A stretch of 56,872 nucleotides of DNA, taken from contig JAIPED010000003.1 in assembly GCA_021737325.1 (NCBI GenBank), positions 1 through 56,872 of the forward strand. The letters are read 5' to 3'. This document shows positions 1-16,695 of the stretch, piece after piece. Each line of letters starts with the position of its first letter. Positions within the stretch are counted from its first letter, which is position 1. The stretch is from Deltaproteobacteria bacterium. Its GTDB lineage: Bacteria > Desulfobacterota > Syntrophia > Syntrophales > JAIPED01. Below the pieces are notes generated by a model that saw nothing but the letters and a program-made list of their open reading frames with translations, made no database searches and had not been told where the DNA came from. The translations under genes were made by a program, and so were the position numbers.

Positions 1-653
1 AAATCCTGGGCAATCTCACTTGCTCGTTTGTTGAGCGCCGCCATTTGTTTTATCGCATTGGCAATAACGGCTTCTGGAGCGGCTTCTCCCTTGATGGCGG
101 TGGAGACTATCCCCATACCCAGAGGCTTGGTCAAAAGCAACGCATCGCCAGCCCTAGCTCCCCGATTAAAAAAGATGCGCGATGGGGCAACAACACCAGT
201 AACGGAAAGGCCATATTTAATCTCGTCATCTTCAACGCTGTGGCCACCAACGAGGAGCGCCCCCGCCTCCCGAATTTTTTCCATCCCACCTTTTAAAATC
301 GCCCGGAAGATATCATTTTCCATCTTGCCGATGGGAAAGCAGACTATGTTCATGGCTGTTAGTGGCTTTCCTCCCATAGCGTAAATATCGCTTAGGGCAT
401 TAGCAACGGCAATCTGTCCAAAAGCGAAGGGGTCATCAACAATAGGCGTAAAAAAATCAAGCGTTTGGATAAGTGCGGTTTCATCGTTAAGCAGATACAC
501 TCCTGCATCCTCGCTATTTTCAAAAGAAGTTAAAAGCCGTTCGTCGGCAAGCAAGGGCAGATCTTTTAGGATATCAGAGAGGTCCCCCGGACCTATCTTA
601 CAGGCTCAACCAGCGGCTTTGACGCACTGTGTTAGGCGGATATTGTTGGCCAT
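1..653 (-). CDS. selD: Selenide, water dikinase (selenophosphate synthetase), selenocysteine-containing; 3' end runs off the window
   Basis: Manual translation from ATG 653: MANNIRLTQCVKAAG-(TGA 608-606)-ACKIGPGDL...SEDAGVY...QTLDFFTPIVDDPFAFGQIAVANALSDIYAMGGKP...GGHSVEDDEIKYGL...LTKPLGMG. The frame stays open to base 1. RBS GGGAGG lies upstream. Absent from the ORF track. Confidence 0.95.
576..598 (-). promoter_or_regulatory. Putative bacterial SECIS hairpin downstream of the in-frame UGA
   Basis: mRNA AGAU-AGGUCC-GGG-GGACCU-CUCU. The core stem begins about 12 nt after the UGA and has a G-rich apical loop. Confidence 0.65.
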
Positions 654-848
654 TTCTTCGCACCTCCCTGTGCTATGTCCCATAACCTACAAGCAAAGTT
701 GGGTCAATGAGAGAAGCATTTCCTGTCAAGATTAAATTCATTGCCCCGTTTTATGATACGCGATTCCTCCTAAAAATTTTAAAAACATTCTTGCCCACTT
801 AAGAAAAATGACAGAAGGTCAAGCCTTCTGGGAGAGAGGGCAAAGAAC

Positions 849-1805
849 ATGACCTACGGCAAAGCAAATAGGGCAACCGCGAGGGTTGCCCCTACATATG
901 CCGATATTCCCGGTTTTTGTGCGTCGGTTTCCATCAATCGGGTGCGCGGACTGGACTATGTGCTCACACTGGGCAGCTATGTCGGACTTCCGGACGATGA
1001 GGACGAACAAAAAGCTATCGCCTCGGTGCTCTCCAGCCTTGATGACAAAATCGACCTGCTCCACCGCCAAAACAAAACCCTCGAAGCCATGGCCGAAACC
1101 CTCTTCCGCCAGTGGTTTATTGAGAATGCGCCTCAACCCTCACCCCAGCCCTCTCCCAGCGGGAGAGGGTGTAAAAAAGAAGCTCAGGAGGATTGGGAGG
1201 AGGGCAAGGTTAAAGATATTGTCGATGTACTCTCTGGATTTGCATTTAAAAGTTCAGTCTTCGTAGAAGCCGGTACATATCGATTGATAACTATCAAGGC
1301 TGTGCAGGATGGTTATCTTGAAGTCAATGGCGCTGTCCAAATTGAGGATGTGCCTTCTCAGACCCCTGGCTACTGCTTCCTAGAACATGGAGACATTCTA
1401 CTTTCGCTCACAGGGAATGTTGGACGATGTTGCATGGTTGATGCTGAAAAGTTGCTGCTTAATCAGCGTGTTGCAAAACTTCGGGCTAAAAATGAGCGTG
1501 ATTGGGCGTTTGTGTATGTAATGTTTCGACAGCAGTCGATGCGGCAAACCCTTGAGGAAACGGGGAAAGGAACTGCTCAATCGAATTTGAGCCCGGTTGA
1601 GATGAGTAACATGCCGATGCAAGTACCTTGGTCAGAGTTGTTGGCGAAGTTCAGCCTCAAAACAACACCAATGCTGAAAAAAGTACTCACGAATAAGATA
1701 CAGATACAAAATCTAGAAAAACTCCGCGACACCCTTCTCCCCAAACTCATGAGCGGTGAAGTGAGGGTCGATATTAACATCGAGCCGAAGGGTGAATGCG
1801 CATGA
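849..1805 (+). CDS. hsdS: Chimeric ORF: HsdM C-terminal remnant fused to half a type I HsdS (conserved region + one TRD + C-terminal conserved region)
   Basis: YADIPGFCASV...LDYVLTLGSYVGLPDDED resembles the HsdM tail. EQKAIASVLSSLDDKIDLLHRQNKTLEAMAETLFRQWF and LEKLRDTLLPKLMSGEVRV are HsdS conserved helices. Only one TRD is present. Confidence 0.85.
   Translation: MTYGKANRATARVAPTYADIPGFCASVSINRVRGLDYVLTLGSYVGLPDDEDEQKAIASVLSSLDDKIDLLHRQNKTLEAMAETLFRQWFIENAPQPSPQPSPSGRGCKKEAQEDWEEGKVKDIVDVLSGFAFKSSVFVEAGTYRLITIKAVQDGYLEVNGAVQIEDVPSQTPGYCFLEHGDILLSLTGNVGRCCMVDAEKLLLNQRVAKLRAKNERDWAFVYVMFRQQSMRQTLEETGKGTAQSNLSPVEMSNMPMQVPWSELLAKFSLKTTPMLKKVLTNKIQIQNLEKLRDTLLPKLMSGEVRVDINIEPKGECA
871..895 (-). 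repeat. GTAG-type REP palindrome in frame in the HsdM remnant
   Basis: GGGCAACC-GCGAG-GGTTGCCC-CTAC. Same arms as 4447-4472 inside the RAYT gene. Confidence 0.8.
1137..1169 (+). repeat. Palindromic repeat CCCTCACCCCAGCCCTCTCCCAGCGGGAGAGGG inserted in frame in hsdS
   Basis: Hairpin CCCTCTCCC-AGC-GGGAGAGGG, translated as PSPQPSPSGRG, between the conserved helix and the TRD. Confidence 0.75.
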
Positions 1806-3556
1806 GTAAGCTGCACTCTATTTCGATAACCAACATAAAAGGGATAGGCGCACAAAAGACATTCGAATTAGGCTTGTTTCCGAATAAGCCGAGCTTGCTC
1901 GTGGCACCAAATGGTTTCGGAAAAAGTTCATTGGCTTGCGCGTTCAACTCAATGAATGGCAATAGAATCGATTTGGCCGAGAAAGACTACCATGAGAAAA
2001 ATGCTGCGAATCTTCCGATAATTTCGATAAATTTTGACGGCACACAGTATGATGCAACGAATGCGACGAATGCCATCGCCGGTGCCTTTGACGTCTTCGT
2101 AATCAACAGTCAGGTTGTGGCTAAGGCTACAAAGCGGAATATGGGACGGTTCACTACTGTGTCGGCAAGTTTAGATGTCACCTCTGTCGTGTTGATTGAC
2201 AGAATTCCTGCCAAAGTGGATTTTGCATATAGTCACCCGCAGTGTAAAAGGACGTTCGGCACTAATGGCAAAATTTTGCCCGACGCGACACCTTTGCTCA
2301 ACAATTTGGAGTTTCTTGCCCGTTTGGAAGCCGGGACTGACTTTCACAATTTCGGGCTGGTAAGGGCGTACAAGCTTCTTGTCGATCCAGTGATTGATAA
2401 TATTAATCGGCAGCCGGGCTCAGGCGACCAGATTAAGGTGTGGATGAGCACAAATGTGATGACCGATCTCGAAGCGATCGCTCCATTGAAAGCGTTGAAA
2501 ACAGTCATTAAGGAAGTGACGGGAAACGATGATGTCGAATCCTATTTGCTTGCGTGGCAGTTGGCACGGGAATCTCAAGATGCAAACTTTAGGGCCGCGT
2601 TGGAGTACAAGCTGTATCTGCGAGAGAAGAAGTTTTACGACGAACTTTTAAAATCCTTTGACACTACACGGCACAACATTTGCACCTCCGAAGACAAAAT
2701 TGATAAAACGAAAAAAAAGCTTGTGGTCAATTTCCCGCGTGCAGATGAAATATCGAATGGACAAAGAGATGTGCTCACTTTTGTGGCTCAATTGCATCGA
2801 GCTAGAAGAAAGCTGAAGAAACCCAACTGTATTTTGATTATCGACGAAATCTTTGATTATTTGGATGATGCCAATCTTGTTGCCTTTCAATATTACATCA
2901 CCCAATTCATAGAAGAGTTCAAAGCGCAAACCAGGAATCTTTATCCGCTTCTGCTAACGCACTTGGATCCTGCGTACTTTCGGCATTTCTGTTTCAATCG
3001 ACACAAATTGCAGGTCAGATATTTGAACAAGGATGCGGCTGCAACTCAGTCGGCCTGCTTGAGCCTTGTTCGGAAGCGGGATGATCCTTCCATTGAAGCC
3101 GCTGTGAGCGCACACCATTTTCACTTCAACCCAGCGGAGCAGGACTTACAGGCTGAGTTTGGTGCTTTGGCGCTGAATGTAGCGTGGGGCAAGTCGCATG
3201 AGTTTTATGTCTATGTAAAGGGTGAGGCGGAGAAATATCTCCGGATCCAGCAATATGATGCGATTGCGGTATTGCTTGCTGTCAGGATTTGTATCGAAAC
3301 TTTAGCGTACAATAAGTTGCCTGCTGATGCAAAGCAGGGGTTCATTGATACACACAAAACCGCAAGTAAACTCGATTATTGTGAAGAACATGGCGTCGCC
3401 ATACCAGAAACATACTACTTGTTAGGTCTGATTTACAACGACGACTTGCACTGGAGGGAGGGCCGGGATTATGACACCCCTTTAAGGGCGAAGCTTGAAA
3501 ACCTGACGATTAGAAATATGATGAAGGAGGTTTTGAGTGAAAAGAGTACAAGTTAA
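1802..3556 (+). CDS. ABC/SMC-type ATPase with C-terminal HEPN-like region (PrrC/RloC-like, AAA_13-like) putative defence nuclease
   Basis: Walker A APNGFGKS, signature ISNGQ, Walker B ILIIDE plus D-loop YLD, H-loop LLTH. C-terminal R-x3-E (RICIE) and N-x3-H (NDDLH). Sits between hsdS and hsdR, with an ATGA overlap on the hsdS stop. Confidence 0.7.
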   Translation: MSKLHSISITNIKGIGAQKTFELGLFPNKPSLLVAPNGFGKSSLACAFNSMNGNRIDLAEKDYHEKNAANLPIISINFDGTQYDATNATNAIAGAFDVFVINSQVVAKATKRNMGRFTTVSASLDVTSVVLIDRIPAKVDFAYSHPQCKRTFGTNGKILPDATPLLNNLEFLARLEAGTDFHNFGLVRAYKLLVDPVIDNINRQPGSGDQIKVWMSTNVMTDLEAIAPLKALKTVIKEVTGNDDVESYLLAWQLARESQDANFRAALEYKLYLREKKFYDELLKSFDTTRHNICTSEDKIDKTKKKLVVNFPRADEISNGQRDVLTFVAQLHRARRKLKKPNCILIIDEIFDYLDDANLVAFQYYITQFIEEFKAQTRNLYPLLLTHLDPAYFRHFCFNRHKLQVRYLNKDAAATQSACLSLVRKRDDPSIEAAVSAHHFHFNPAEQDLQAEFGALALNVAWGKSHEFYVYVKGEAEKYLRIQQYDAIAVLLAVRICIETLAYNKLPADAKQGFIDTHKTASKLDYCEEHGVAIPETYYLLGLIYNDDLHWREGRDYDTPLRAKLENLTIRNMMKEVLSEKSTS

Positions 3557-3661
3557 GAGAAGTTTACGAGAAGACAGCGGAACGGATGTTTTGTAATTTG
3601 CTGATTATCAGAATCTTACTTCTCTTGATTATACTCGTGATTTCTGCGGTTTTAAGAGAAG
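3548..3661 (+). repeat. 114-bp non-coding element, copy A
   Basis: Ungapped alignment with 6612-6725 gives 96/114 identical by hand count. Contains TTAAGAGAA-like 9-mers in both orientations and a central CTGAT-T-ATCAG palindrome. Confidence 0.9.
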
Positions 3662-3684
3662 CTAGACAGGGAACGCACAGTCTT

Positions 3685-3840
3685 ATGAGCAAATTAATTA
3701 CCGAGTCCGCCATCGAAACCTTCGCCATCGAGCTGTTTGAAAAGCTCGGGTATCAGTATGTCTATGCTCCAGATATCGCGCCGGACAGCGTTACGCCCCT
3801 ACCCATAACCATATCCGGAGAAGTGCAGGTGGAAATATGA
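3685..3840 (+). pseudogene. Mini-ORF: hsdR 5' fragment fused to an hsdS 3'-end-like fragment
   Basis: MSKLITESAIETFAIELFEKLGYQYVYAPDIAPDS matches the HsdR start. The following TPLPITISGEVQVEI* parallels TLLPKLMSGEVRVDI of HsdS. The stop overlaps the next ATG. Confidence 0.85.
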
Positions 3841-4127
3841 GCAATAACCATCTCCCGGAAAAAGCTCAAAACTTCGTCATTTTCCAAACGGAAACGGGCA
3901 AAATTAACATAGAAGTCTTTTTTCACAACGAGACCCTTTGGCTTACACAAAAAAAGATTGCAGAACTGTTTGAAAAAGACCGCAGTGTAATCACAAAGCA
4001 CCTGAAAAATATTTTTAACGAAGAAGAATTGGATGAAAAAGTGGTATGTGTAAATTTTGCACACACCACTCAACACGGCGCCATCAAAGGCAAAACCCAG
4101 CGGGGACGGCATGAAACACAATCCTGA
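3837..4127 (+). pseudogene. RhuM-family (virulence protein) N-terminal fragment
   Basis: FVIFQTETG...ETLWLTQKKIAELFEKDRSVITKHLKNIFNEEEL...FAHTTQHGAIKGKTQ is typical of the RhuM N-terminus. Truncated at 96 aa. Confidence 0.75.
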
Positions 4128-4752
4128 CATTCTTCATCGCCGTTCGATTCGTTTGTGTGGTTACGATTATTCACAGGCGGGGTTGTATTTTGTGACGATT
4201 TGCACCCAGGGGCGGCACCATCTGTTCGGCGATATTGTGGATGGCACGGTTCAATTCACCGACGCTGGAGAAATGGTGCGCACCGTATGGGAGGGAATCC
4301 CATCCCATTATCCGGGTGTCGAAATCGATCAATTTGTCGTCATGCCCAACCATTTTCATGGGATCGCGGTCATCGTAGGGGCAGGCCCCCGTGCCTGCCT
4401 TGATGGCGATGGGCAACCGGAACAAACAGGGCAACCACATCCAATCGGGCAACCACGGGGGGTTGCCCCTACGGGGTATTCATTGCCGGACATGGTCCAT
4501 CGGTTCAAAACCATGACCACAAAAAAATATGTGGATGGGGTTAAATTACATGGCTGGCAACGATTCGACGGCAAATTGTGGCAACGCAATTATTGGGAAC
4601 ATATTGTCCGTAACAAACAGGAATTGTTTCGCATCCGGCAGTACATCGAAACCAACCCCGTCCAATGGGAAAACGACAAATTGAACGGCGGTTCGGGCAA
4701 TCAGGTTTTGGAACCGCAAACAGAATACGGCTGGGAATCATGGATGGTATGA
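4111..4752 (+). mobile_element. REP-associated tyrosine (Y1/HUH) transposase, RAYT
   Basis: RRSIRL.GYDYSQAGLYFVTICT, HUH motif MPNHFHGI, WQRNYWEHIVR, YIETNP..W. Internal REPs are translated as VGAGPRAC and GQPRGVAPT. Confidence 0.9.
4375..4472. repeat. Inverted REP pair inside the RAYT gene
   Basis: GTAGGGGCAGGCCCCCGTGCCTGCC (4375-4399) and GGGCAACC-N6-GGTTGCCCCTAC (4447-4472). GGGCAACC recurs at 4411, 4429 and 4447 (18-bp period). Confidence 0.85.
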
Positions 4753-4955
4753 ACATCACCGAATCCGCTATCGAAACCTTTGCCATCGAGTTGTTCGAGA
4801 AGCTCGGGTATCAGTACATCTATGCCCCGGACATCGCACCAGACAGCGAAACGCCAGAGCGCGAACGCTTCGAAGATGTGTTGCTGCTGGAGCGGCTGCA
4901 CTTTGCGGATTCCGGACTAACTGGACAACGAAAATACGATGGAGTTGGACGATGA
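4749..4955 (+). pseudogene. Mini-ORF: second hsdR 5' fragment
   Basis: MNITESAIETFAIELFEKLGYQYIYAPDIAPDSETPERERFEDVLLLERL is near-identical to the start of 6748..9987. ATGA overlaps at both ends. Confidence 0.9.
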
Positions 4956-6601
4956 ACGCATACGACAAACTGAAAGCTTTGCTTGAATTGCCCGCTGAGA
5001 CCGAAACGGTCGAGTTCAAGGAGGCGAAGAACGGCTACGATTTCACGAAGCTGGGACGCTATTTTTCGGCGCTGAGCAACGAGGCAAATCTGAACCGTCA
5101 TTCGAGCGCATGGCTGGTTTTCGGCGTGAACAACGCACGCCAGGTGGTGGGGACGAAGTACCGTAGTAACCGGCCTGATCTGGACCATCTGAAGGAAGAA
5201 ATCGCCAACAAGATCAGTCATCGTATTACATTTATTGAAATCCATGAGGTGCCGCACGAAAACGGGCGCGTTGTTCTGTTTCAGATTCCTGCCGCGCCCA
5301 AGGGGTTGCCGATTGCTTTTGAAGGGCACTATTACGGGCGCGACGGCGAAGCGCTGTCGCCGCTGAATCTGGAAGAGATCGAGCGCATCCGTGCACAGGC
5401 GACGCAGGAGGACTGGAGCGCCGCCGTGGTGTTCGGTGCCGGGCTGGACGATTTGGATGCGGAAGCGCTGGCGGTGGCGCGGAAGAATTTCAAGAACAAA
5501 CTTCCGGATAAAGCTAGTGAGGTGGATGGCTGGGACGATATGACATTTCTGAACAAGGCGAAGCTGACCATCAAGGGGCAGATTACGCGTACGGCGTTAT
5601 TGCTTCTTGGTAAAGAAGAGGCGGAGCATTTCCTGTTACCAGCGGATGCCAAGATCCGCTGGCTGTTGAAGGATCATCAGGGTAACGACCGCGATTATGC
5701 GCTGTTCGGCGTGCCGCTGCTATTGGCGGTGGACAAGGCGTACGCCAAAATCCGTAATCTGAAATATCGTTATATCCGCGAAGGAACATTGTTTCCGGAA
5801 GAGACAGATCAGTATGAACCGTATGCGCTTCGCGAGGCGCTGAATAATTGTATTGCCCATCAGGACTATACGCTGGCCGGACGAATCAATGTGGTTGAGC
5901 GCGAAGACAGTCTGACCTTTACCAATTTGGGGAGTTTTGTGCCGGGGGATGTTCAGCGTGTGGTGATGGAGGATGCACCCGAAGAGCATTACCGCAACCG
6001 GTTTCTGGCGACGGCGATGTTCAACCTGAAAATGGTGGATACGGCAGGCGGCGGTATCCGCAAGCTGTTTATGTTTCAGAAGCAGCGGTTTTTCCCGCTT
6101 CCCGACTATGATCTTTCTAATAATCGGGTTCAGGTTACGCTGACCGGAAAAGTGCTGGATATGGATTATGCGCGATTGCTGGCAGGTAATGGCGATCTGA
6201 CACTTCAGGAGATTATCGCCCTGGACAAAGTGCAGAAACGTAAAGCGTTGGATGCGGGAGAAGAAAAGCTGCTAAAGACCAAGGCTCTCGTCGAAGGGCG
6301 CAAGCCGAATTTCTACATTGCCAAATCCATTGCGCAAAATACGGGACAAAAGGCTTCCTACAGCAAGAACCGGGCGTTTAATAAGCAGTATTATCTCGAT
6401 CTGATCTGTAAGGCGGTTGGCGAGCACGGCACCATGTCCCGCAAGGATATTGACGAGCTTCTCTGGAATAAGTTGCCCGAATGGATGGGTGATAAGCAGA
6501 AGAGGGGGAAAGTCGGGAACCTCATCACTGAGTTGCGCAAGAATGAAATGATAGAAAACATTGGAACGATCAAATACCCGGAATGGGTTCTCTTAAAATG
6601 A
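4952..6601 (+). CDS. Schlafen/AlbA_2 domain + HATPase_c_4 (RecG-C-like) + winged-helix protein
   Basis: ETETVEFKE, SALSN, WLVFGV (Schlafen/AlbA_2). LREALNNCIAHQDY, NLGSF, YRNRFLA, MVDTAGGGI (HATPase_c_4). Confidence 0.85.
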   Translation: MNAYDKLKALLELPAETETVEFKEAKNGYDFTKLGRYFSALSNEANLNRHSSAWLVFGVNNARQVVGTKYRSNRPDLDHLKEEIANKISHRITFIEIHEVPHENGRVVLFQIPAAPKGLPIAFEGHYYGRDGEALSPLNLEEIERIRAQATQEDWSAAVVFGAGLDDLDAEALAVARKNFKNKLPDKASEVDGWDDMTFLNKAKLTIKGQITRTALLLLGKEEAEHFLLPADAKIRWLLKDHQGNDRDYALFGVPLLLAVDKAYAKIRNLKYRYIREGTLFPEETDQYEPYALREALNNCIAHQDYTLAGRINVVEREDSLTFTNLGSFVPGDVQRVVMEDAPEEHYRNRFLATAMFNLKMVDTAGGGIRKLFMFQKQRFFPLPDYDLSNNRVQVTLTGKVLDMDYARLLAGNGDLTLQEIIALDKVQKRKALDAGEEKLLKTKALVEGRKPNFYIAKSIAQNTGQKASYSKNRAFNKQYYLDLICKAVGEHGTMSRKDIDELLWNKLPEWMGDKQKRGKVGNLITELRKNEMIENIGTIKYPEWVLLK

Positions 6602-6611
6602 TGCCAAGCGC

Positions 6612-6725
6612 ACAAGTTAAGAGAAGTTTATGAGAAGGTAGCGGAACGGCTAATTTATAATATGTTGATTATCATAAACTTACTTCTCTTAATTTCACTC
6701 ATGAGTTTTGCTGTTTTAAGAGAAG
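6612..6725 (+). repeat. 114-bp non-coding element, copy B
   Basis: Paralog of 3548-3661. Perfect IHF consensus AATCAACATATTA on the minus strand at 6658-6670. Confidence 0.9.
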
Positions 6726-6747
6726 AGAGGTAGGGGAAACGCAGTCT

Positions 6748-9700
6748 ATGAATAAATTAATCACCGAATCAGCCATCGAAACCTTCGCCATCGAGCTATT
6801 TGAAAAGCTCGGCTATCAGTATATCTATGCCCCGGATATCGCGCCGGACAGCGAAATGCCGGAGCGCGAACGCTTTGAGGATGTGTTGCTGCTGGAGCGG
6901 TTGCGCTCGGCGGTGGCGCGTATCAACCCGTCCATTCCCGCCGATGTTCGTGAGGAGGCGATCAAACAGGTTCAGCGGCTGAACTCGCCGGAACTCATCG
7001 TCAACAACGAAGCCTTCCACCGCATGTTGACCGAGGGCGTCAAGGTCGTCTATCAGGACAGAGGGAATGAACGCGGCGATTTGGTATGGCTGATGGATTT
7101 TGCCAAGCCCGAGAATAACGAGTTCGTCGTGGCGAATCAGTTTACGGTGATTGGCCACCACACAAATCAGGGACACCAGAGCAATCGCCCGGATGTTGTC
7201 TTGTTCGTCAACGGCCTGCCACTGGTGGTGATTGAACTCAAGAACGCCGCCGATGAAAACGCCACGATCAAATCCGCCTACCAACAATTGCAGACCTACA
7301 AAGAGGTAATCCCCGCCTTATTTACCTACAACGGCATGTTGGTGATCTCCGATGGCCTGGAGGCCAAAGTGGGATCACTGTCAGCGGGCCTCTCCCGATT
7401 CATGGCGTGGAAAACAGCGGACGGCAAGCTGGAGGCATCACGGCTGATCAGCCAGTTGGAAACCTTGATCAAGGGCATGTTGAACAAGGCGACTCTGCTG
7501 GATTTGCTGCGCCATTTCATCGTGTTTGAAAAGTCGAAAAGAGAAGACCCGGCAACGGGGGTTATCAGCATCAGCATGTTGAAGAAGCTTGCGGCGTATC
7601 ACCAGTATTATGCGGTCAACGCGGCGGTGGCTTCCACCTTGCGGGCGGCACGAGAAGCGCCACGGATGGCGGCGGAAACGCCAGAGGGTTACGGCTTGGC
7701 GAGTGTGAAAAACCAGCCACCGGGGGATCGCAAGGCCGGTGTGGTGTGGCACACGCAGGGTAGCGGTAAATCGCTGTCAATGCTCTTTTACACCGGCAAG
7801 ATCGTGCTGGCGCTGGATAATCCTACGATTATCATAATCACCGACCGCAACGACCTGGATGATCAATTGTTCGATACTTTTGCCGCCTGTAACCAGTTGT
7901 TGCGGCAGGAGCCGATGCAAGTGGATGACCGCAAAGAGCTGAAGCGGCTATTAAGAGTAGCGTCCGGCGGGGTGATTTTCACCACCATTCAGAAATTTCA
8001 ACCGGAAGAAGGCAATATCTATGAGGAATTGACCGACCGCCGCAATGTGGTGGTGATCGCCGATGAGGCGCATCGCACCCAGTACGGCTTCAAGGCAAAA
8101 ACCGTGGACAAGAAAGATGCTCAAGGCAATATTACCGGCAAACGGGTAGTTTACGGTTTTGCTAAATATCTGCGCGATGCCCTGCCGAACGCAACCTACC
8201 TTGGTTTTACCGGCACGCCCATCGAAAAAACCGATGTCAACACCCCGGCGGTGTTCGGCAATTATGTGGATGTGTACGACATTGCCCAGGCGGTGGAAGA
8301 CGGCGCCACCAAGAAGATTTATTACGAAAGCCGCCTAGCCCGAGTTTCGCTCAGCGACGAGGGCAAGAAGCTTATTGCCGAATTGGACGAGGAACTGGAA
8401 CAGGGCGAGTTGACCGAGACCCAGAAGGCCAAGGCCAAATGGACAAAGATGGAGGCATTGGTCGGCGCAAAGCAGCGCATTCGAAATGTGGCGCAGGACA
8501 TCGTGGAACATTTTGAGAAACGCCAGGAAGTTTTTGCGGGCAAGGCCATGATTGTGGTCATGTCGCGGAGGATTGCGGCAGAGTTGTATGAACAGATCAT
8601 CAAACTGAAACCAGAATGGCATTCACTCGACCTGACCAAGGGCGTCATCAAGGTGGTAATAACGGCGGCCTCTGCAGATGGCCCGAAACTGGCAGGGCAT
8701 CACACCAGCAAAGAACAACGCAGGACGATTGCCGAGCGCATGAAAAACCCCGATAACGAGTTAAAGTTGGTTATCGTGCGCGACATGTGGCTCACTGGTT
8801 TTGATGCACCCTGTATGCATACGCTATACATTGACAAGCCCATGAAGGGCCACAACCTGATGCAGGCTATCGCAAGGGTGAATCGCGTTTACGGTGATAA
8901 GCCTGCGGGTTTGGTGGTGGACTATCTGGGCATTGCGGCTGACCTCAAGCAGGCCTTGTCGTTCTATGCTGATGCCGGTGGCAAGGGCGACCCCATGCTG
9001 GCCCAGGAGCAGGCCGTAAAAATGATGCAGGAAAAGATTGAGGTGGTGACCAGTATGTATCACGGCTTCCCTTACGAGGATTACTTCGATGCCGACACTT
9101 CCGGAAAACTCGCCATGATCCTGGCGGCTGAGGAACATATCCTCGGCTTGGAGGATGGCAAGAAACGCTATATCGACCAAGTTACCGCCTTGTCGCAGGC
9201 ATTCGCCATTGCCATTCCCCACGAGCAGGCCATGGATGTGAAGGATGAAATCGCCTTCTTCCAGGCGGTGAAGGCGCGGCTGGCGAAGTTCGACAGCACG
9301 GGCACGGGGAGAAGCAATGAGGAAATCGAATCAACCATTCGGCAGGTAATCGACAAAGCGCTGGTCTCAGAGCAGGTCATTGATGTGTTCGACGCTGCCG
9401 GAATCAAGAAGCCCGATATTTCGATTCTTTCCGAAGAGTTTTTGCTGGAGCTGAAGAACAAGGAGCATAAAAACATCTCGCTCGAAGTGCTCAAAAAGTT
9501 GCTCAACGACGAAATCAAAGCGCGGGCCAAGAAGAATCTGGTACAAAGCAGAACTTTAATGGAAATGTTGCAAAGTGCCATCAAACGGTATCACGCCAAG
9601 GTACTCACAGCAGCAGAGGTGATGGATGAGCTGATCAACATCAGTAAGGAAATCGTTAAGTCCGACAAGCAAGCCAAAGAGATGGGCATGAGCGACTATG

Positions 9701-9987
9701 AGTACGCCTTCTATACCGCCGTGGCCAGCAACGATAGCGCCAGAGAACTAATGCAACAAGACAAGTTGCGCGAGCTTGCCGTTGTGCTTTTTGAGAGAGT
9801 AAAAGCCAATGCCTCCATTGATTGGACAATCAAGGAAAGCGTAAAGGCAAAACTCAAAGTCATTGTAAAAAGAACCTTGAGAGAATTTGGCTATCCGCCT
9901 GATATGCAGAAGCTGGCAACCGAGACGGTGCTTAAGCAGGCGGAGATGCTGGCGAATGAGTTAACCAGAAACACAACCACGGGATGA
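6748..9987 (+). CDS. hsdR: Type I restriction endonuclease subunit R
   Basis: RPDVVLFVNGLPLVVIELKN (PD-ExK), WHTQGSGKS, DEAHRTQY, FTGTP, MWLTGFDAP, QAIARVNR. Full length, 1079 aa. Confidence 0.97.
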   Translation: MNKLITESAIETFAIELFEKLGYQYIYAPDIAPDSEMPERERFEDVLLLERLRSAVARINPSIPADVREEAIKQVQRLNSPELIVNNEAFHRMLTEGVKVVYQDRGNERGDLVWLMDFAKPENNEFVVANQFTVIGHHTNQGHQSNRPDVVLFVNGLPLVVIELKNAADENATIKSAYQQLQTYKEVIPALFTYNGMLVISDGLEAKVGSLSAGLSRFMAWKTADGKLEASRLISQLETLIKGMLNKATLLDLLRHFIVFEKSKREDPATGVISISMLKKLAAYHQYYAVNAAVASTLRAAREAPRMAAETPEGYGLASVKNQPPGDRKAGVVWHTQGSGKSLSMLFYTGKIVLALDNPTIIIITDRNDLDDQLFDTFAACNQLLRQEPMQVDDRKELKRLLRVASGGVIFTTIQKFQPEEGNIYEELTDRRNVVVIADEAHRTQYGFKAKTVDKKDAQGNITGKRVVYGFAKYLRDALPNATYLGFTGTPIEKTDVNTPAVFGNYVDVYDIAQAVEDGATKKIYYESRLARVSLSDEGKKLIAELDEELEQGELTETQKAKAKWTKMEALVGAKQRIRNVAQDIVEHFEKRQEVFAGKAMIVVMSRRIAAELYEQIIKLKPEWHSLDLTKGVIKVVITAASADGPKLAGHHTSKEQRRTIAERMKNPDNELKLVIVRDMWLTGFDAPCMHTLYIDKPMKGHNLMQAIARVNRVYGDKPAGLVVDYLGIAADLKQALSFYADAGGKGDPMLAQEQAVKMMQEKIEVVTSMYHGFPYEDYFDADTSGKLAMILAAEEHILGLEDGKKRYIDQVTALSQAFAIAIPHEQAMDVKDEIAFFQAVKARLAKFDSTGTGRSNEEIESTIRQVIDKALVSEQVIDVFDAAGIKKPDISILSEEFLLELKNKEHKNISLEVLKKLLNDEIKARAKKNLVQSRTLMEMLQSAIKRYHAKVLTAAEVMDELINISKEIVKSDKQAKEMGMSDYEYAFYTAVASNDSARELMQQDKLRELAVVLFERVKANASIDWTIKESVKAKLKVIVKRTLREFGYPPDMQKLATETVLKQAEMLANELTRNTTTG

Positions 9988-10063
9988 TAAATGAGCTGTT
10001 CCCCCCACATATGGCGCGGTTGATGCGTGGCAAACGAGTTAGCAACAAGAAAGGATTGAAGCT

Positions 10064-10372
10064 ATGTATAAACCACTGGCAAACGATTGGATTGAAGAAA
10101 TGGTGGCAGGAGGAAAGCTTGAAGCCATGTCCACCCAAAAAAGGGAGCAGCTGGCGGAAGAGTATGCCATGATTATTGAAGAAACAATCGCCGCCGAGGC
10201 GCAAAAAACCCTCGCGACGATGGGCAAGGCTGACGAGTACGAGCGGATGAAGCTTTTTGACGGGCAGTATCTTAACAAATATCTAAACCAAACGATCCCT
10301 GCCTTTTTCTCTTTCAAGATGGAGGCGATCGCTTTGGCAAAAGAGATTATTCTTGCAAAGGGAAAGTCATGA
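10064..10372 (+). CDS. Small helical hypothetical protein
   Basis: 102-aa ORF with an RBS-like AAAGGA upstream and an ATGA overlap with the next gene. No family recognised with confidence. Confidence 0.65.
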   Translation: MYKPLANDWIEEMVAGGKLEAMSTQKREQLAEEYAMIIEETIAAEAQKTLATMGKADEYERMKLFDGQYLNKYLNQTIPAFFSFKMEAIALAKEIILAKGKS

Positions 10373-11712
10373 AATTTTTGGCACATAGCCACCCCGATGA
10401 ACCCCTCCAACTGGTTGGCGAACCGCAGGTGGCGGTGGGAATTAGCGAAAAAGCAAGGGCCGTTACGGGAAGGCTACAAGGAACCTTTGTCGTCGCTGGA
10501 AAGACCATCAGCGGTGATTTTAGCGCGGAGATTATTGAGGGGGGAAATGTCCTTTTGCGCAATCCGCGGATAACTATTCGTGCGCCGCGGATCGAATTGG
10601 AAAATCATCAAGGAGGGATTTTTGCGCTTGATGATGTCATTATTGGCAAGGATTTTCATTGGGAGCGGCGAGAAAAACAGGAATTTCGTGGTTCATTGGT
10701 GCTTCAGGCAACGACGGAAGGAATCAGCGTTATCAACGAGATCGGTTTGGAGGAATACCTTAGCGTGGTGATTGCTTCTGAGATGAGCGCCGCGGCGCCG
10801 GTGGAGTTTCTGAAGGCCCAAGCGATTGTCGCAAGAAGTTGGTCTCTTGCTCGCCTGCTTAGCGAGGAAAAGGACGAATATCGGCAGGAAATCCCCCCTA
10901 CAGAGGTTGTTTGCTGGTATGGTCGGGGAAGGCATAACGATTTTGATTTCTGTGCCGATGATCACTGCCAACGCTACCATGGCATTACTCGGGAAACGGC
11001 AACACACAACCTTGCCGCAACCAGACAAACCCGTGGATTATTTTTGGTTAGCGGCACTCAGGTATGTGATGCCCGCTATCACAAGGCATGCGGCGGTCTT
11101 ACGGAACATTTCTCTGTGGCTTGGGAGGATAATGGTGCGCCTTATCTGGTGCCCATTGTCGATTCTCTTGCAAAACAACCCTTTATCACCACTGAAGAAT
11201 CCGCCCACGCTTGGTTATGCAACTCCCCCAACGCGTATTGCCGTGTTTATGATGAAAAATTGCTGGCAACGATTCTCCCTTCGTTTGATAGGGAAACCGC
11301 CGATTTTTTCCGCTGGCAGGTAACATATCGGCGCGAAGAGTTAGAAGCAATCATCCAGGAGAAGGCAAAGAGGCATCTGGGAGAGCTGAAAGAAATTATC
11401 GCGCTCCAGCGGGGAGCTTCAGGAAGGATCTATCGCCTTCGTCTGGTTGGCTCACGGGAGGAAATGACTATCGGGAAGGAACTGGAAATCCGTCGAGTGC
11501 TTGCAATAAATCACCTCTACAGTAGCGCGTTCGTCGTGGAAAAACGGGGTGGAGGAGTCTTTCCTGACGAAATTGTCCTTCACGGTGGCGGTTGGGGGCA
11601 CGGTGTTGGGCCCTGTCAAATTGGTGCCGCCAACATGGCTCTCCAAGGATTTAGCTGTGAGCAGATACTCGGGCACTATTTCCCGCAGACGAATTTGGAG
11701 CAACTTTATTGA
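10369..11712 (+). CDS. SpoIID/LytB domain protein
   Basis: LEEYLSVVIASEM, LKAQAIVARS, CADDHCQRYHG, YHKACGG, GGGWGHGVGPCQIGA, ILGHYFP. Confidence 0.92.
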   Translation: MKFLAHSHPDEPLQLVGEPQVAVGISEKARAVTGRLQGTFVVAGKTISGDFSAEIIEGGNVLLRNPRITIRAPRIELENHQGGIFALDDVIIGKDFHWERREKQEFRGSLVLQATTEGISVINEIGLEEYLSVVIASEMSAAAPVEFLKAQAIVARSWSLARLLSEEKDEYRQEIPPTEVVCWYGRGRHNDFDFCADDHCQRYHGITRETATHNLAATRQTRGLFLVSGTQVCDARYHKACGGLTEHFSVAWEDNGAPYLVPIVDSLAKQPFITTEESAHAWLCNSPNAYCRVYDEKLLATILPSFDRETADFFRWQVTYRREELEAIIQEKAKRHLGELKEIIALQRGASGRIYRLRLVGSREEMTIGKELEIRRVLAINHLYSSAFVVEKRGGGVFPDEIVLHGGGWGHGVGPCQIGAANMALQGFSCEQILGHYFPQTNLEQLY

Positions 11713-11823
11713 TTGATGAAAGGCACCTTGCCTGTGGCTTCAAGTTGCCACTGAGAGCTACACCAGGGCGAATTGAACAACTTCAGGAATGCCGAAAACC
11801 AAGAACTGATTCTCAAGAAAGAA

Positions 11824-11850
11824 GGAGGAGGAGGAGGAGGAGGAGGAGGA
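11824..11850 (+). repeat. (GGA)9 trinucleotide microsatellite
   Basis: Nine perfect GGA units, ending 6 nt before ATG 11857. Confidence 0.95.
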
Positions 11851-11856
11851 ACGGAA

Positions 11857-12177
11857 ATGCCTGCTTTAGACGATGCGATTGATGAAATTTTAGCGACATA
11901 CTTTTACTATGTTGCGGGAATTGCGGAATGGGAAGTTATTCGCCAGCAGGGCTTAGTTGCCGACGACGGGGGCATGATCGCCGCGATAAGCGGCTATGAT
12001 GCTGATTTATTTGCAGAAGTAGCAAAGAGCAAGGGACTTTCCGAATATATCGTTTTGCGATTTAACCCCACCACCTGGGGCGTTTCTCCCACTCCCCACG
12101 AAGGACCCAAGCGCTGTCAGCTTCGGTGCCCAATTATTGGCCCTTGCCTAATTGAGCGGGTCCCATTCTCCCCTTAG
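11857..12177 (+). CDS. Hypothetical protein or gene remnant
   Basis: Open frame after the GGA run. The first ~75 codons look protein-like; no family recognised. Confidence 0.35.
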   Translation: MPALDDAIDEILATYFYYVAGIAEWEVIRQQGLVADDGGMIAAISGYDADLFAEVAKSKGLSEYIVLRFNPTTWGVSPTPHEGPKRCQLRCPIIGPCLIERVPFSP

Positions 12178-12257
12178 GGCATCAAACCTTTACATCACCC
12201 CACCCTTTTGTTAGGTGTCCACCGATTTTCTGATGGGATTTGGTGTCGTTCCGACAA

Positions 12258-15200
12258 ATGCGGCTAAAAAAATTGGAAATTTCTGGCTTTAAATCCTTCC
12301 GTGACAAGGTTGTTTTTGATTTACCCGAGGGAATCAGTGCGTTCGTGGGGCCTAACGGTTCGGGAAAGAGCAATGTTGTTGACGCCATTCGCTGGGCAAT
12401 GGGCGAACAGCGCGTAAAATCGCTTCGCGGCAAAAAGATGGAAGATGTTATCTTTAACGGTTCCGAGGCAGTTGCGGGCGCGGGCATGGCGGAAGTTACC
12501 CTCACTTTAAGCAACGAAAATGGCGTTTTTCCCGCACCCTATGCGGAAATGGCGGAAGTTTCCCTTACCCGTAGGCTCTTTCGGGATTGCGACAGCGATT
12601 ACTACATTAACAATGCTCCTTGCCGTTTGTTAGATATCCGTGAATTTTTCATGGGTACGGGGATGGGGGGTAGAAGCTACGCCATCATTGAACAGAATAG
12701 TGTTACGGGCATAATAGAAGCAAAACCTGAAGAAATTCGCTATTTTATCGAAGAGGCGGCAGGAATTTCCAAGTACCGCTCACGCAAGGAAGCGGCTTTA
12801 AGAAAATTAGAAGCGGCACAGGCAAATGTTACCCGCGTTCACGATGTTTTGCGCGAATTGAAGAACCAGCTTAACACCCTTTCACGGCAAACAAAAAAGG
12901 CGCAGGCTTTTAGGGATGCCCGAGATGAGTTAAAAAACGCTCAACTCCTCTTGGGATTACAGAGATGCTGGGATTTGGCGGCCAAGAAAAAAGAAATTTT
13001 AGAAAAATCTTCCAAACTTGCCAGCGATATTGAGCAGCTATCCGCCACTCAAGAATCTCTGGAAGCGGAGAGCGGCGCACTTAAACTTACGATCTTGGAA
13101 GAAGGCGAACGGCTCGCCAGTGCACAAGAAAATATCTATGCAATTAAAAACGAAATGAGCGCGAAAGAACACCGCATCACATTTAATAAACAGCAGGTAG
13201 CGGAGTTGCTCCTGCGTCGAGAGACGGCGATGCGGGAGATTGCCATCTTAACAGAGAAGGTCGCGACGACGAAAGAGACGATCGGCGCCAATGCCCGCCA
13301 GATGCGGGAATTAAGCGAAGAACTCGCCAAGTTGCTAATAGAAATTGCCGCCGCCGAAAAGTTGGTTGCCCAGCTCAAGGAACGGGAAGCAGAACTTTAC
13401 AGAACGATAGAGCGGATTAAAGCCGATTATGTGGAGGCTGTTACCGCCAAGACAAACCATCGCAATATGCTACTTAACATTGCCAAGGTCTGCGAAGATT
13501 TGGAAAAGCGCCAAAAACGGGGGGCAGGAGATTTAGAACAGATGCGGGTAAATTGGCAAAACGCCGTTTCCGCTCAAAAAAGCTCGCTTCTTGGCGTTGA
13601 GGAACTATCCATCAAAAAAGCTACCAGCGAAGAACAGTTGCGAGAAATCGTGCGCCGTAAAGTGCAATTAAAGGAAGAAATTGCCTTCACGGAGGAGGAT
13701 CTGGAGGAAGCGAAAGCACGGTTGACACAAAAGACCTCACGCTACGAATCTTTGCAGGAATTTCAACGCGGATATTCTTGGTGTTCGGAAGGAGCGCAGG
13801 CCTTGCTATCGGAGAAGGGCAATACCATTCCTGCAGATCTCCGACAGGGTATTGTTGGCACTATTTCCGACCATATTGATGTCGCTCCAGGTTTTGAGAC
13901 GGCAATAGAAGCGCTTCTAGGGGAAAAGATGGGAGCCGTTATCGTTTCCTCATGGGAAAATGGCCTCCGCTCCATAGATTACATCAAATTTTCTGCCTTA
14001 GAGCGCTCCAGCGTTATTGCCCTACAGGCCCAAGGAAGAGTTGCCCTCCCGGATATCCCTGGAATGAAAAAAGCCATGGATGTTGTGCGTACCAATAGCT
14101 CCTCGCAGGAGTTGGTAGAATGGTTATTGCGAGATTCCTACATCGTCCCGAACCTGGCCGAAGGGGTGCTCCTGTGGCAAAAAAATGGCGGCGGGAATTT
14201 TGCAACGCCTGAGGGAGATTTGGTCGTCAGTAGCGGGGTTATCAGTGGCGGAGCACGGCCGCAAGCAAGCCTGTTTAAGAATAAGCGGGAACTTTTTGAG
14301 CTAGCGCAGGAAAAGGAAGAGCTGGTAAAAAATATTGCCCTTGCGGAAGAAAATAAGAAACGCAACGGGGCACTTTTAGAAGCGTTGGAGGAAGAAGAGG
14401 CGCTCACCCGACAATCCGCGCATCGTTTAGCGACAGAGGTGGAAATAGCGATAAGGGAAGCGCAACACCGCGAAAAAGAAGCGAAGATCTTGCAACAACG
14501 AATTGATGTACTGCTCTTTGAAAAGCAAAACATTCAAGAAGAGCTTGTTCAGGCCCAAGCAGGTATTGCCAGCGAACAACAGGGAGAAAAAGAAAGTGCA
14601 CACAAAGAAGATATCCTGAAAAACGAGCTGGCAGCTCTGCAAGAAAAATGGGCGAGGGCAAAGGAAGAGCTTGCCCAGGCTCAAGAAATTCTTACCACCA
14701 AGAAGGTTTCCATCGCTCGATTACAGACGGACATCCGCGCACGAGAGGATGCGGTGCGGATGCAACAAGCGAGCCTTGCCGAAAGCGAAAATACCATAGC
14801 CCAGCGAACCACAACGATTAATGCTGCTGCTATACAAGCAGAAAGCTTGACACAGGAGGAAGAAACGGAACGAGCCTGCATTGGGGAATTAGCGGCACGC
14901 TACACCGCCATGGAAGAAGAGTATCTCTTGCTGAAGCAGGAAAACGCCGCGAAGGAACAACAGCGAATAAAAGCCGAAGAAGCACTACGCGAATTAAACA
15001 GGAAAAAAGAAGCGGAGCAACAGCGAAAGGCGGAGTTGCAGACGGAGTATGCCAACGCTACCTATCAGCAGGAAAGCCTGATAGAATCCTTGGCGGAAAA
15101 GGGCTATGAAAACCTGACGGAGAGCTTGGCAAACTTCCAAGGCTTGTTGCCGCAGGAGATTGACGCGCTTAGCGAAACTGCGGAAAAACGGAAACGCGAA

Positions 15201-15806: not shown

Positions 15807-15813
15807 GGAGGTA

Positions 15814-16695
15814 ATGCGGATGGGAATGTTGAGCGCCCTAAAAAGAGGGCTTGCCAAAACAAAGACCGTCTTTAGTGCGAGTATTGAAGCTATTCAGGGG
15901 CAAACCGCTGGGGAGGATTGGGAATCCTTGCTCATCGCTACCGATATGGGTGCCGCATTTGCCGCTCGGGTGACCAAGCAAATAAAAGCTCAGGGGGGTA
16001 CGGATAAAAAACGGGGAAAGGAAATATTGCGAGAGATTCTAATCGCGACGCTACTGCCGAGGCAGAGCGATTTTTTCAAGGACGCAAAGATGCCGCTGGT
16101 GGTCATGGTTATCGGGGTAAATGGTACGGGAAAAACAACAACCATCGGAAAGATAGGCGGAATGCTCAAAAATGAAGGTTATAGGGTGATGCTTTGTGCG
16201 GGTGATACCTTTCGTTCCGCCGCCAAGGAACAGCTTGCCATCTGGGGCGAACGCAATGACATTCCTGTTGTATCCAAGGTGGCAGGTGCGGATCCCGCTG
16301 CGGTTGTATTTGAGGCGCTGGCAAAGGCGCGTGCAGAAAAGACCGATATTCTCTTAGTTGATACCGCTGGTCGCTTGCACACCAAGTTCAACCTCATGGA
16401 AGAGTTAAAAAAAATAAAAAGGGTAATCGCCAAGGATACGCAGCAGATGAAGACCCTATTGGTTTTGGATGCAACAACGGGGCAAAACGCGGTAGGGCAA
16501 GCAGAAGCCTTTAATGACGCCGTGGGTGTTGATGGCATTGTGCTCACCAAGCTTGACGGCTCCGCCAAGGGTGGCATTATCGTGCGTATTGCCGCAGAGC
16601 TTAGCATTCCTATTGCTTATATCGGAGTTGGCGAGGGTGTTGACGACCTGCGTAGCTTTGATGCCAGAACCTTTGTTGACGCGCTGTTAGATTAG
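15814..16695 (+). CDS. ftsY: SRP receptor FtsY
   Basis: GVNGTGKTTT, DTFRSAA, DTAGRLH, TKLDGSAKGG. Confidence 0.97.
   Translation: MRMGMLSALKRGLAKTKTVFSASIEAIQGQTAGEDWESLLIATDMGAAFAARVTKQIKAQGGTDKKRGKEILREILIATLLPRQSDFFKDAKMPLVVMVIGVNGTGKTTTIGKIGGMLKNEGYRVMLCAGDTFRSAAKEQLAIWGERNDIPVVSKVAGADPAAVVFEALAKARAEKTDILLVDTAGRLHTKFNLMEELKKIKRVIAKDTQQMKTLLVLDATTGQNAVGQAEAFNDAVGVDGIVLTKLDGSAKGGIIVRIAAELSIPIAYIGVGEGVDDLRSFDARTFVDALLD

Follow-up and report, generated by a model that had tools for sequence, protein, structure and literature searches.

Introduction

Type I restriction-modification (RM) operons with embedded defence genes are well documented (PMC11411939, PMC12255303, PMC12707154; these and the other sources cited here were available as excerpts). 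PrrC, DarTG2 and TgvAB are encoded between hsdS and hsdR; of these PrrC, from a type IC locus, is a nuclease that cleaves tRNA. A similar arrangement occurs at the start of contig JAIPED010000003.1 of a Deltaproteobacteria bacterium (Syntrophales, JAIPED01; assembly GCA_021737325.1), whose positions 1 to 56,872 on the forward strand form the stretch analyzed here (the window). In it a spacer element with short repeated boxes occurs twice, in both cases followed by the 5' end of hsdR, the gene for the restriction subunit. In contrast to what is seen here, the excerpts on PrrC, DarTG2 and TgvAB mention neither 5' stubs of hsdR nor 3' tails of hsdS, and no stepwise build-up of cargo where hsdR begins. 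We consider it probable that modular import of cargo made the repeat and that the element is the native spacer between a Schlafen gene and hsdR, carrying putative winged-helix sites.

The closest regulatory parallels are the C proteins, which control type II restriction genes through C-boxes, and RptR with its direct repeats at type I RM islands (PMC12255303, PMC12707154). Going by the excerpts, the likeness lies in a helix-turn-helix (HTH) protein in an RM locus, in short repeated sites before restriction genes and in a need to limit or time the restriction subunit. Those proteins are small dedicated regulators with sites upstream of the gene or operon that encodes them, whereas the putative binder here is a Schlafen nuclease-GHKL ATPase of 549 aa, and the sites in the window lie downstream, from the stop codon of the binder's own gene, as clade-specific 11-bp tandem copies. 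The minimal RptR site, the palindrome TAGCTA (PMC12255303), was not seen in either copy of the element.

Bacterial Schlafens are tRNA-cleaving defence effectors with a variable C-terminal domain as sensor (PMC13056530; 10.64898/2026.05.29.728809). Schlafen-GHKL-HTH proteins rank among the commonest architectures of bacterial Schlafens. In one catalogue the HisKinase-HTH architecture has a share of 19.2% (PMC13056530). According to a preprint, a Schlafen-GHKL relative forms ATP-driven tetramers, and >90% of such proteins have an HTH in the C-terminal tail (10.64898/2026.05.29.728809). The protein in the window resembles the pSlfn HisKinase-HTH class (PMC13056530) and the 'Schlatpase' supradomain (10.64898/2026.05.29.728809) in its combination of SLFN_AlbA_2, PF13749 GHKL and C-terminal HTH and in its defence or RM neighborhood. 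The members studied in those two works differ in having Ig-like or Argonaute sensors and not an HTH, and the excerpts describe neither adjacent DNA repeats nor a DNA target of the HTH. Provisionally, and as far as these excerpts reach, both repeat arrays beside Schlafen-GHKL-HTH genes and the pairing of hsdR stubs with hsdS tails appear to be undescribed.

A preliminary description of the window read the element as a 114-bp site for a tyrosine recombinase and integration host factor (IHF), at which cargo could be swapped, or alternatively as an operator of hsdR bound by the winged helix of the Schlafen protein. Like dif/Xer, phage att and integron attC sites the element has inverted and direct short repeats around a central palindrome at a junction of variable and conserved genes. 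It is unlike tyrosine-recombinase sites in that no fixed crossover, no cognate recombinase among the scanned open reading frames (ORFs) and no conserved IHF site were found, and in that the homology runs into coding sequence. In homology-facilitated illegitimate recombination, or Campbell-type insertion of a circle, one homologous anchor and one illegitimate or micro-homologous join lead to a duplicated anchor, and the resulting direct repeats permit loop-out and re-insertion. Compared with that process only the presumed products are seen here, and it is peculiar to these loci that an hsdR 5' end and an hsdS 3' tail recur as a pair.

Results

Extent of the repeat

The features of the locus, in window coordinates, are as follows.

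849-1805, plus strand: hsdS, 5'-shortened, with one Methylase_S domain
1796-3556, plus strand: cargo 1, ABC/SMC-type ATPase gene, 586 aa; weak SMC_N and AAA_21 matches, weak AriA, AbiLi and mad8 matches in PADLOC
3545-3684, plus strand: element copy A, a relic spacer; boxes at 3553-3562 (+), 3564-3573 (+), 3619-3628 (-) and 3652-3661 (+); central TGATTATCA at 3602-3610
3685-3790, plus strand: hsdR 5' stub A, hsdR nt 1-106, 35 codons, 97/107 identical to the full gene
3791-3840, plus strand: hsdS 3' tail of a presumed first imported module, ..LPITISGEVQVEI and stop, from comparison of the frame-2 translation with HsdS C-termini
3837-4127, plus strand: cargo 2a, N-terminal fragment of a RhuM-like gene; PADLOC PDC-S05, E = 2.5e-31
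4057-4752, plus strand: cargo 2b, IS200-like Y1 transposase gene resembling REP-associated tyrosine transposases (RAYT-like); Y1_Tnp
4755-4899, plus strand: hsdR 5' stub 2, hsdR nt 13-157, 128/145 identical; HSDR_N match in ORF 4665-4955
4900-4955, plus strand: possible hsdS 3' tail of a presumed second imported module, ..GLTGQRKYDGVGR and stop; doubtful, weak resemblance
4952-6601, plus strand: cargo 3, gene for a protein of 549 aa with Schlafen (AlbA_2), GHKL ATPase and C-terminal winged helix; Pfam SLFN_AlbA_2 and HATPase_c_4
6606-6747, plus strand: element copy B, the current Schlafen-hsdR spacer; boxes at 6617-6626 (+), 6628-6637 (+), 6683-6692 (-) and 6716-6725 (+); central TGATTATCA at 6666-6674
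6748-9987, plus strand: intact hsdR, 1079 aa; HSDR_N, SWI2_SNF2, T1R_D3-like and T1RH-like_C; PADLOC REase_I

The 114-bp copies at 3548-3661 and 6612-6725 align without gaps, as was first described, and are part of a longer duplication. Positions 3542-3790 and 6606-6854 are 84% identical over ca. 249 bp, which comprise the whole spacer and hsdR nt 1-106. An hsdR promoter or leader carried along by duplication, which the preliminary description had listed as the outcome that would speak against its proposal, is essentially what the duplication is, running 106 nt into hsdR. Two unrelated genes do end no more than a few nucleotides from the start of the homology, and the TAA of the ATPase gene falls within box 1 of copy A. 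The element had further been thought to join cargo to two hsdR starts. Sequence of hsdR follows both copies, but the first of these starts is a 35-codon stub and not a gene.

A third hsdR 5' copy, absent from the preliminary description, is present at 4755-4899, and two 5' stubs therefore precede the intact hsdR. Most codon differences between the three hsdR starts are synonymous (7/9 for stub A against hsdR, 15/16 for stub 2 against hsdR and 13/14 for the remaining pair), which suggests that the three diverged as working alleles and were then brought together, and argues against recent duplication in place. In the genome (1.49 Mb) the element itself has only these two copies.

A Logan contig of run X1, which may be the source sample, covers positions 8-6591 without differences, so the nested arrangement is not an assembly or binning artefact of the metagenome-assembled genome (MAG). 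No joint linking copy A to copy B was present in the contigs of the sequencing runs examined. The sides of further joints in these contigs, among them 1760 to 8059, are short, and the joints probably come from other organisms. In RNA run X15 contigs of 151 nt match parts of the Schlafen gene and of hsdR exactly, which is no proof of transcription. Marine metagenome run X2 contains exact pieces of 845-5767, on the left side of the island, and a diverged piece of 1833-2445 (54/613 differences), which indicates that a second study also sampled a close relative. No contig of X2 was seen to cover 6240-9900, from which we conclude nothing.

Stubs and tails in related loci

Since the HsdR of the window resembles two from a Gallionella MAG (78-79% identity), we sampled 201 Gallionellaceae genomes; 69 of these gave a match to the HsdR N-terminus. 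Other related loci (L numbers) were compared with them. In the Gallionellaceae clade most cargo abuts or overlaps the hsdR ATG with no element in between; the genes concerned encode RAYT, AbiEii, HepT, RhuM-like or Fic-like and small antitoxin-like proteins. Among 17 loci of the hsdR clade, forward-strand copies of the hsdR 5' motif were found upstream in 8, and the reverse strand gave one weak match. The stubs end at hsdR nt 25, 50, 72, 77, 80, 85, 106, 132, 157 and 197. This variation argues against a fixed crossover and, together with the cargo that abuts hsdR directly, against the element as the crossover site.

Directly behind the stub an HsdS C-terminal tail (..LLPKLMSGEVRV..) was recognized at 5 of 11 junctions, including stub A of the window (..LPITISGEVQVEI and stop). 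At two further junctions, one of them behind stub 2, the tail is doubtful. Both tails in the window run into the next gene: the stop codon of the first overlaps the start of the RhuM-like gene, and that of the doubtful second overlaps the Schlafen start. Since stubs are followed by HsdS tails, the inserted unit appears to be a donor stretch that runs from the hsdS 3' end through the cargo into hsdR. The L061 junction, as read from alignments, sits in a shared GAGGTG.

A cassette of MNT-HepT with a common hsdS tail (..KLMSG(E/K)V..DTQG..YNRANVA. and stop) stands behind element plus stub in L064 and behind RAYT plus stub in L065. Judged from sequence, two such contexts would be expected if the cassette had been transferred by recombination inside the hsdR 5' repeat. 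The order ATPase - stub - rhuM' - Schlafen - element - hsdR is common to the window and L072, which suggests common inheritance or transfer en bloc for part of the architecture; the cargo 1 ATPase is 56% identical to L072:2029-3798 in the equivalent position.

Several other observations concern these junctions. The RAYT-like Y1 gene of the window also abuts hsdR or a stub in L020, L041 and L049. Its stop codon repeatedly overlaps the start codon of hsdR or a stub, as seen at L020:4779-5250(-), L065:5596-6300, L070:5705-6283(-) and window 4057-4760. In three Gallionellaceae genomes (L062, L066 and L070) hsdR 5' stubs persist in decayed type I loci beside phosphofructokinase (PFK) and H+-pyrophosphatase (H+-PPase) genes, and no full hsdR was found there with the HsdR query used. 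An integrase gene interrupts the hsdR stub in L068, and an HTH transposase-like gene does so in L069.

Boxes within the window

In both copies two tandem boxes lie 11 bp apart just past the stop codon, an inverted one follows ca. 55 bp on and a further direct one completes the set. The element thus has the makeup of an iteron array, with short motif copies in 10-11 bp helical phase at a fixed place relative to a gene. With at most one mismatch TTAAGAGAAG was found 11 times in the window against 3.57 expected, a number reached in 0 of 100 shuffles, and 9 of the 11 matches lie within or beside copies A and B. Exact TTAAGAGAAG occurs eight times in the whole genome, five of them at this locus; the reversed control pattern gave 10 matches.

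If the motifs mattered they should be better conserved than their flanks, as the preliminary description had proposed to check. Between the two window copies this is not significantly the case: 33/37 box positions and 78/103 spacer positions are identical (p = 0.10). The case for box function therefore has to come from other genomes. Two more sites proposed earlier are real as sequence. Copy B has the perfect IHF box (6658-6670) and copy A lacks it; the IHF pattern WATCAANNNNTTR is at chance frequency, with 3 matches in the window against 3.47 expected. The extra inverted TTCTCTTAA does lie at 6588-6596, where it coincides with the last codons of the Schlafen gene (..EWVLLK and stop), which are kept in homologues.

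Minus-strand promoter-like sites occur in copies A and B at non-equivalent positions. A small peptide was considered as a product of the element (ORF 3586-3840 through the central part, a 23-codon ORF in copy B) and rejected; by our reading the copies differ mostly at non-synonymous sites, with a stop among the differences.

The element and the Schlafen protein

The cargo 3 protein (4952-6601) matches PF04326 (SLFN_AlbA_2, E = 7.9e-15), followed by the GHKL ATPase family PF13749 (E = 5.3e-08). In the AlphaFold2 (AF2) model of its last 110 aa helices span residues 39-53, 58-66 and 75-91 and strands 95-97 and 105-108, with a pLDDT (model confidence) of about 87-92 over residues 41-110. As modeled, the C-terminus is a winged helix of three helices and two strands and thus an HTH domain. 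The top Foldseek rows for this segment are MarR, ArsR, BlaI, Z-alpha, cullin-WHB and forkhead winged helices. A sequence search of solved structures with the Schlafen protein gave no match.

To find further copies we scanned genome contigs with a three-box pattern, which gave three loci, and metagenomes, which gave four (L015 to L018). Element-like spacers were found after Schlafen genes in L012, L071, L072 and L073 besides copy B, and after a C-terminal Schlafen fragment in L064. L012, at a contig end of a Chlamydiota MAG in which no hsdR was found, has the element after a 45%-identical Schlafen homologue. In L014, from a Gallionella MAG, it stands before an hsdR stub, and L015 is a near-identical metagenome contig; in both the spacer is preceded by ca. 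20 nt that we read by eye, with no scored match, as a putative Schlafen 3' remnant. The Gallionellaceae spacers (L071, L072, L073 and L064) measure 135-190 bp and have related boxes behind a Schlafen gene (76-80% identical) or fragment; those of L071, L072 and L064 are degenerate.

Because related spacers occur where a Schlafen gene or its remnant is upstream, we interpret the element as the Schlafen-to-hsdR spacer. The preliminary description had taken a constant upstream gene as a sign against a site of cargo exchange, and a Schlafen gene or 3' remnant is indeed found each time, the exception being copy A behind the ATPase gene.

Other searches gave little. The element with the hsdR 5' end as DNA query gave, in the window's family, which consists of this genome itself, and in 400 genomes of the phylum, only matches to hsdR coding sequence and two chance matches inside genes (L010 and L011). 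A distant-mode search of a plasmid collection gave no match. Six loci in viral contigs, found by the HsdR N-terminus at 50-55% identity, have no element upstream. L017 and L018 from the metagenome scan were discarded as chance matches. The three-box match L013, in a Bacteroides MAG, looks unrelated; at L013:5990-6120, between rplT and a phenylacetate-CoA-ligase-like gene, there is an array of perfect ACTTCTCTTAAGAGAAGT palindromes with GAAAAGTCACC repeats that probably has nothing to do with the element.

Tandem arrays at gene ends

Schlafen-like homologues were present in 12 of the 201 Gallionellaceae genomes, in 21 of 401 genomes of the window's phylum (including the window's own) and in 8 of 401 of the class of the Gallionella MAG. 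Many of them have three or four tandem direct repeats of 11 bp behind them, the array beginning no more than 15 nt to either side of the stop codon. We therefore scanned all gene ends irrespective of family: 411 distinct ends of ORFs of at least 150 aa, from all sampled loci and the whole window, calling an array where at least three tandem units of 10-13 nt matched at 80% or better. Arrays were present at 12 of the 411 ends. Eleven belong to Schlafen-like genes and have a period of 11 bp in every case; the twelfth belongs to an H+-pyrophosphatase gene. This sole non-Schlafen array (L066, minus strand, near 772) consists of three copies of the 13-nt unit ATTATGAACCCCA. In a separate count 10 of 38 Schlafen-like ends and 2 of 361 others had arrays (p = 1e-9), with the caveat that kin are not independent.

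The repeat unit is clade-specific and of at least eight types. The units by clade are TTAAGAGAAG(T), TTTAAGAGAGT, TTTAAAAGAGT, TTTATTAGAG, TATGAGAG, TTTAGAYAAAC, ATTATTTAGAC, TGAGAGAGATT, GAGTAAATGCA and TTAAACGATTT, and several clades keep perfect units though their sequences differ. L089 and L078/L079/L081, from two different sampled groups, have both the TTTAGAYAAAC unit and the helix ..RNL[VL]YAMSKRD.. in common, in what is a small sample of related sequences. As in the window, an inverted copy follows several of the arrays at a distance of 50-60 nt. In L089 the repeats fill the spacer up to the ATG of the restriction gene. Of 19 scanned ORFs that come next on the same strand, 12 encode a restriction subunit (HSDR_N and/or ResIII). 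The element apparently belongs to a wider class of clade-specific 11-bp arrays behind Schlafen-GHKL-HTH genes.

Two side observations come from the same loci. One Schlafen clade (L076, L109, L110 and L111) has no tandem array; before the restriction-subunit gene it has an inverted repeat TTATTGAT ... ATCAATAA, ca. 30-40 nt apart, which resembles the central TGATTATCA of the window. A second SLFN_AlbA_2 ORF lies behind the Schlafen homologue at L099:2502-2996.

Other genes of the locus

The intact hsdR encodes a nuclease N-terminus, a superfamily 2 (SF2) motor and a C-terminal domain, the composition of a type I restriction subunit, and its product is 78-79% identical to those of two hsdR genes in a Gallionella MAG. 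Housekeeping genes (SpoIID, SMC and FtsY) follow downstream. The hsdS ORF at 849-1805 aligns to positions 147-397 of the 406-position PADLOC Specificity_I model and so corresponds to the C-terminal two thirds; its C-terminus reads ..LRDTLLPKLMSGEVRV... Directly upstream on the minus strand (window 1-850) is an AIR-synthase-family (AIRS) gene. No hsdM adjoins hsdS, and N6_Mtase genes are found only on other contigs (C32, C71 and C52) of this 1.49-Mb, 89% complete genome; the locus does not have the adjacent hsdM and full-length hsdS of a type I RM locus.

The RhuM-like fragment at 3837-4127 had no Pfam match at E <= 0.01. The RAYT-like gene contains an internal GC-rich inverted repeat at 4374-4473. 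The palindromes there (GGGCAACC..GGTTGCCCC) resemble repetitive extragenic palindromic (REP) sequences, and another one lies at the very start of the shortened hsdS ORF (871-897), which suggests that the 5' part of hsdS was replaced by REP/RAYT-type DNA.

Discussion

The anatomy of the locus, the recurrence of stubs and tails in related loci and the link between arrays and Schlafen-like genes are observations. The order of events that we propose for them is read from sequence. The locus would have grown by nested import of modules from other type I loci, a module being the last roughly 6-17 codons of hsdS, one or more cargo genes and the 5' end of the donor hsdR. The right join would form by homologous recombination inside hsdR, and the left join, inside the resident hsdR 5' end, would be illegitimate or micro-homologous. 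The resident hsdR start would thereby be left as a stub and an intact hsdR be regenerated downstream. Starting from a resident arrangement of ATPase, element copy A and hsdR, a module of tail, rhuM', RAYT and hsdR would have entered at hsdR nt 106, and later a module of tail, Schlafen, element copy B and hsdR at nt 157. Stub and full hsdR would then be direct repeats, which could serve as homology arms to move or excise a cassette with no dedicated recombinase. Insertion of a circularised cassette would yield the same stub-tail product. The idea that cargo is exchanged at this junction was thus right in spirit, except that the recombining homology would be the hsdR 5' coding segment with the hsdS 3' end and not the 114-bp element.

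For the element we favor, at somewhat better than even odds, the interpretation that the boxes are DNA sites of the winged helix of the Schlafen protein. The operator alternative in the preliminary description has gained comparative support from the linkage to Schlafen genes and the clade-specific 11-bp arrays in three sampled groups; copy A is the exception to it. What bound protein would do is a more tentative matter. The array could be an internal operator or roadblock of a Schlafen-hsdR unit. Control of read-through or initiation into hsdR would be its most likely effect, since the spacer has no plus-strand promoter and repeats fill the spacer in L089, and we put this below an even chance. 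In this way the array would set the amount of HsdR, and four sites in helical phase would suit a tetramer.

Several points weigh against this combined account. On the import side, 4 of the 11 stub junctions have no hsdS tail, no excised or cargo-free variant was seen among the contigs of the sequencing runs examined, and deletion between two tandem type I loci would yield the same stub-tail joint. The missing adjacent hsdM and the shortened hsdS indicate that parts of the locus may be decaying. As for binding, the Foldseek winged-helix rows have E values of 0.017-0.07 and none of 1e-3 or below, boxes are not significantly better conserved than spacers between the two window copies, and a promoter scan found no plus-strand sigma-70-like promoter within copy A or B. 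The window array has two tandem units only and reached 0.64 in the three-unit test. Clean tandem arrays occur in only about a quarter to a third of the sampled Schlafen-like genes, and some clades have inverted repeats or nothing obvious. Copy A sits behind the ATPase with no Schlafen gene and is attached to a dead stub, so that the element can outlast its presumed partner, and the linkage of element and gene could reflect common descent of the module and not function.

The alternative that fares best, though we think it unlikely, is a docking or guard site. By analogy with PrrC, which EcoprrI keeps latent, a tetramer of the Schlafen nuclease would be parked on its cognate repeats beside the restriction gene until an attack on the restriction system or the locus frees it or switches it on, any control of hsdR being incidental. 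The comparative evidence for binding applies to it equally. In the excerpts bacterial Schlafens are tRNA-cleaving effectors with a sensor C-terminus (PMC13056530; 10.64898/2026.05.29.728809), and PrrC lies within a type IC locus (PMC12707154). However, copy A persists with no Schlafen gene, and sequence cannot tell this mechanism from simple regulation.

We regard an RNA switch as improbable. The spacer would in that case be the 5' leader of hsdR, with alternative hairpins, box 1 with the inverted box or the inverted with the last box, that attenuate transcription or mask the ribosome binding site. For both copies and for a five-sequence alignment, pairing of box 1 with the inverted box into a helix of 12-14 bp is predicted, and the inverted box is also able to pair with the last direct box. 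The change from ACGAG/CTCGT to ATGAG/CTCAT, described earlier as compensatory, is present as a double change and is a single instance. Against this, plus-strand folding energies are ordinary (z = -1.39 and -0.70), and the covariation term is -0.12 kcal/mol with double changes in 2 of 14 pairs of a small, closely related set. There was no Rfam match; the sole sub-threshold one in a scan of 3000-7500 was IRES_Bip, outside the element, at 13.7 bits against a gathering threshold of 40. Other clades have purely tandem arrays, sometimes throughout the spacer, with no inverted partner (L089, L078), which fits in-phase protein sites better.

Equally improbable to us is a neutral relic, that is, boxes that arose by slippage or duplication in an AT-rich spacer and travel by linkage with no function. 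The non-significant difference between boxes and spacers (p = 0.10), the degenerate spacers of L071, L072 and L064 and copy A, which is clearly a fossil, agree with it. It does not sit well with a family-blind scan in which 11 of 12 tandem arrays follow Schlafen-like genes, with the 11-bp period of all 11, with perfect units in several clades of differing sequence, or with one unit that two sampled groups have in common along with the recognition-helix sequence.

That upstream cargo is exchanged through a crossover in or next to the 114-bp element, made by a tyrosine recombinase together with IHF, is very improbable, despite a homology that starts within a few nucleotides of two unrelated stop codons, boxes in both orientations around a palindrome and one perfect IHF-consensus match, because the duplication continues 106 nt into hsdR, stubs end anywhere from hsdR nt 25 to 197, most related cargo abuts the hsdR ATG with no element, IHF matches are at chance (3 against 3.47) and absent from copy A, the genome has two element copies with no inter-copy joint in the run contigs, and none of the 13 ORFs scanned in 849-16695 has a Phage_integrase match, the Y1 enzyme being the sole transposase-like gene there (host Xer genes elsewhere were not searched).

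Returning to putative winged-helix sites in a modular locus, a general form of the account is conceivable, which we advance tentatively and with less than even confidence. Each Schlafen-GHKL-HTH protein would bind its own clade-specific 11-bp array at the stop codon, before a type I/III restriction-subunit gene, with one winged helix of an ATP-dependent tetramer per repeat, and so couple a tRNA-cleaving effector, both physically and in its regulation, to the restriction enzyme; the stubs and tails would be the traces of a homology-driven, recombinase-free cassette system by which defence cargo builds up in type I loci and passes from one to another. If the repeats are the target of the winged helix, they would be a concrete, testable ligand for the HTH class of bacterial Schlafens, as experiments so far concern members that are Ig-like, Argonaute or CRISPR-linked. 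The stub-and-tail pattern is a sequence signature for defence-gene stacking in restriction operons and for cassette boundaries elsewhere. If the coupling holds true, it would provide a link, at the level of transcription or by docking, between a tRNA nuclease and the restriction subunit of type I/III systems, whose regulation is poorly known.

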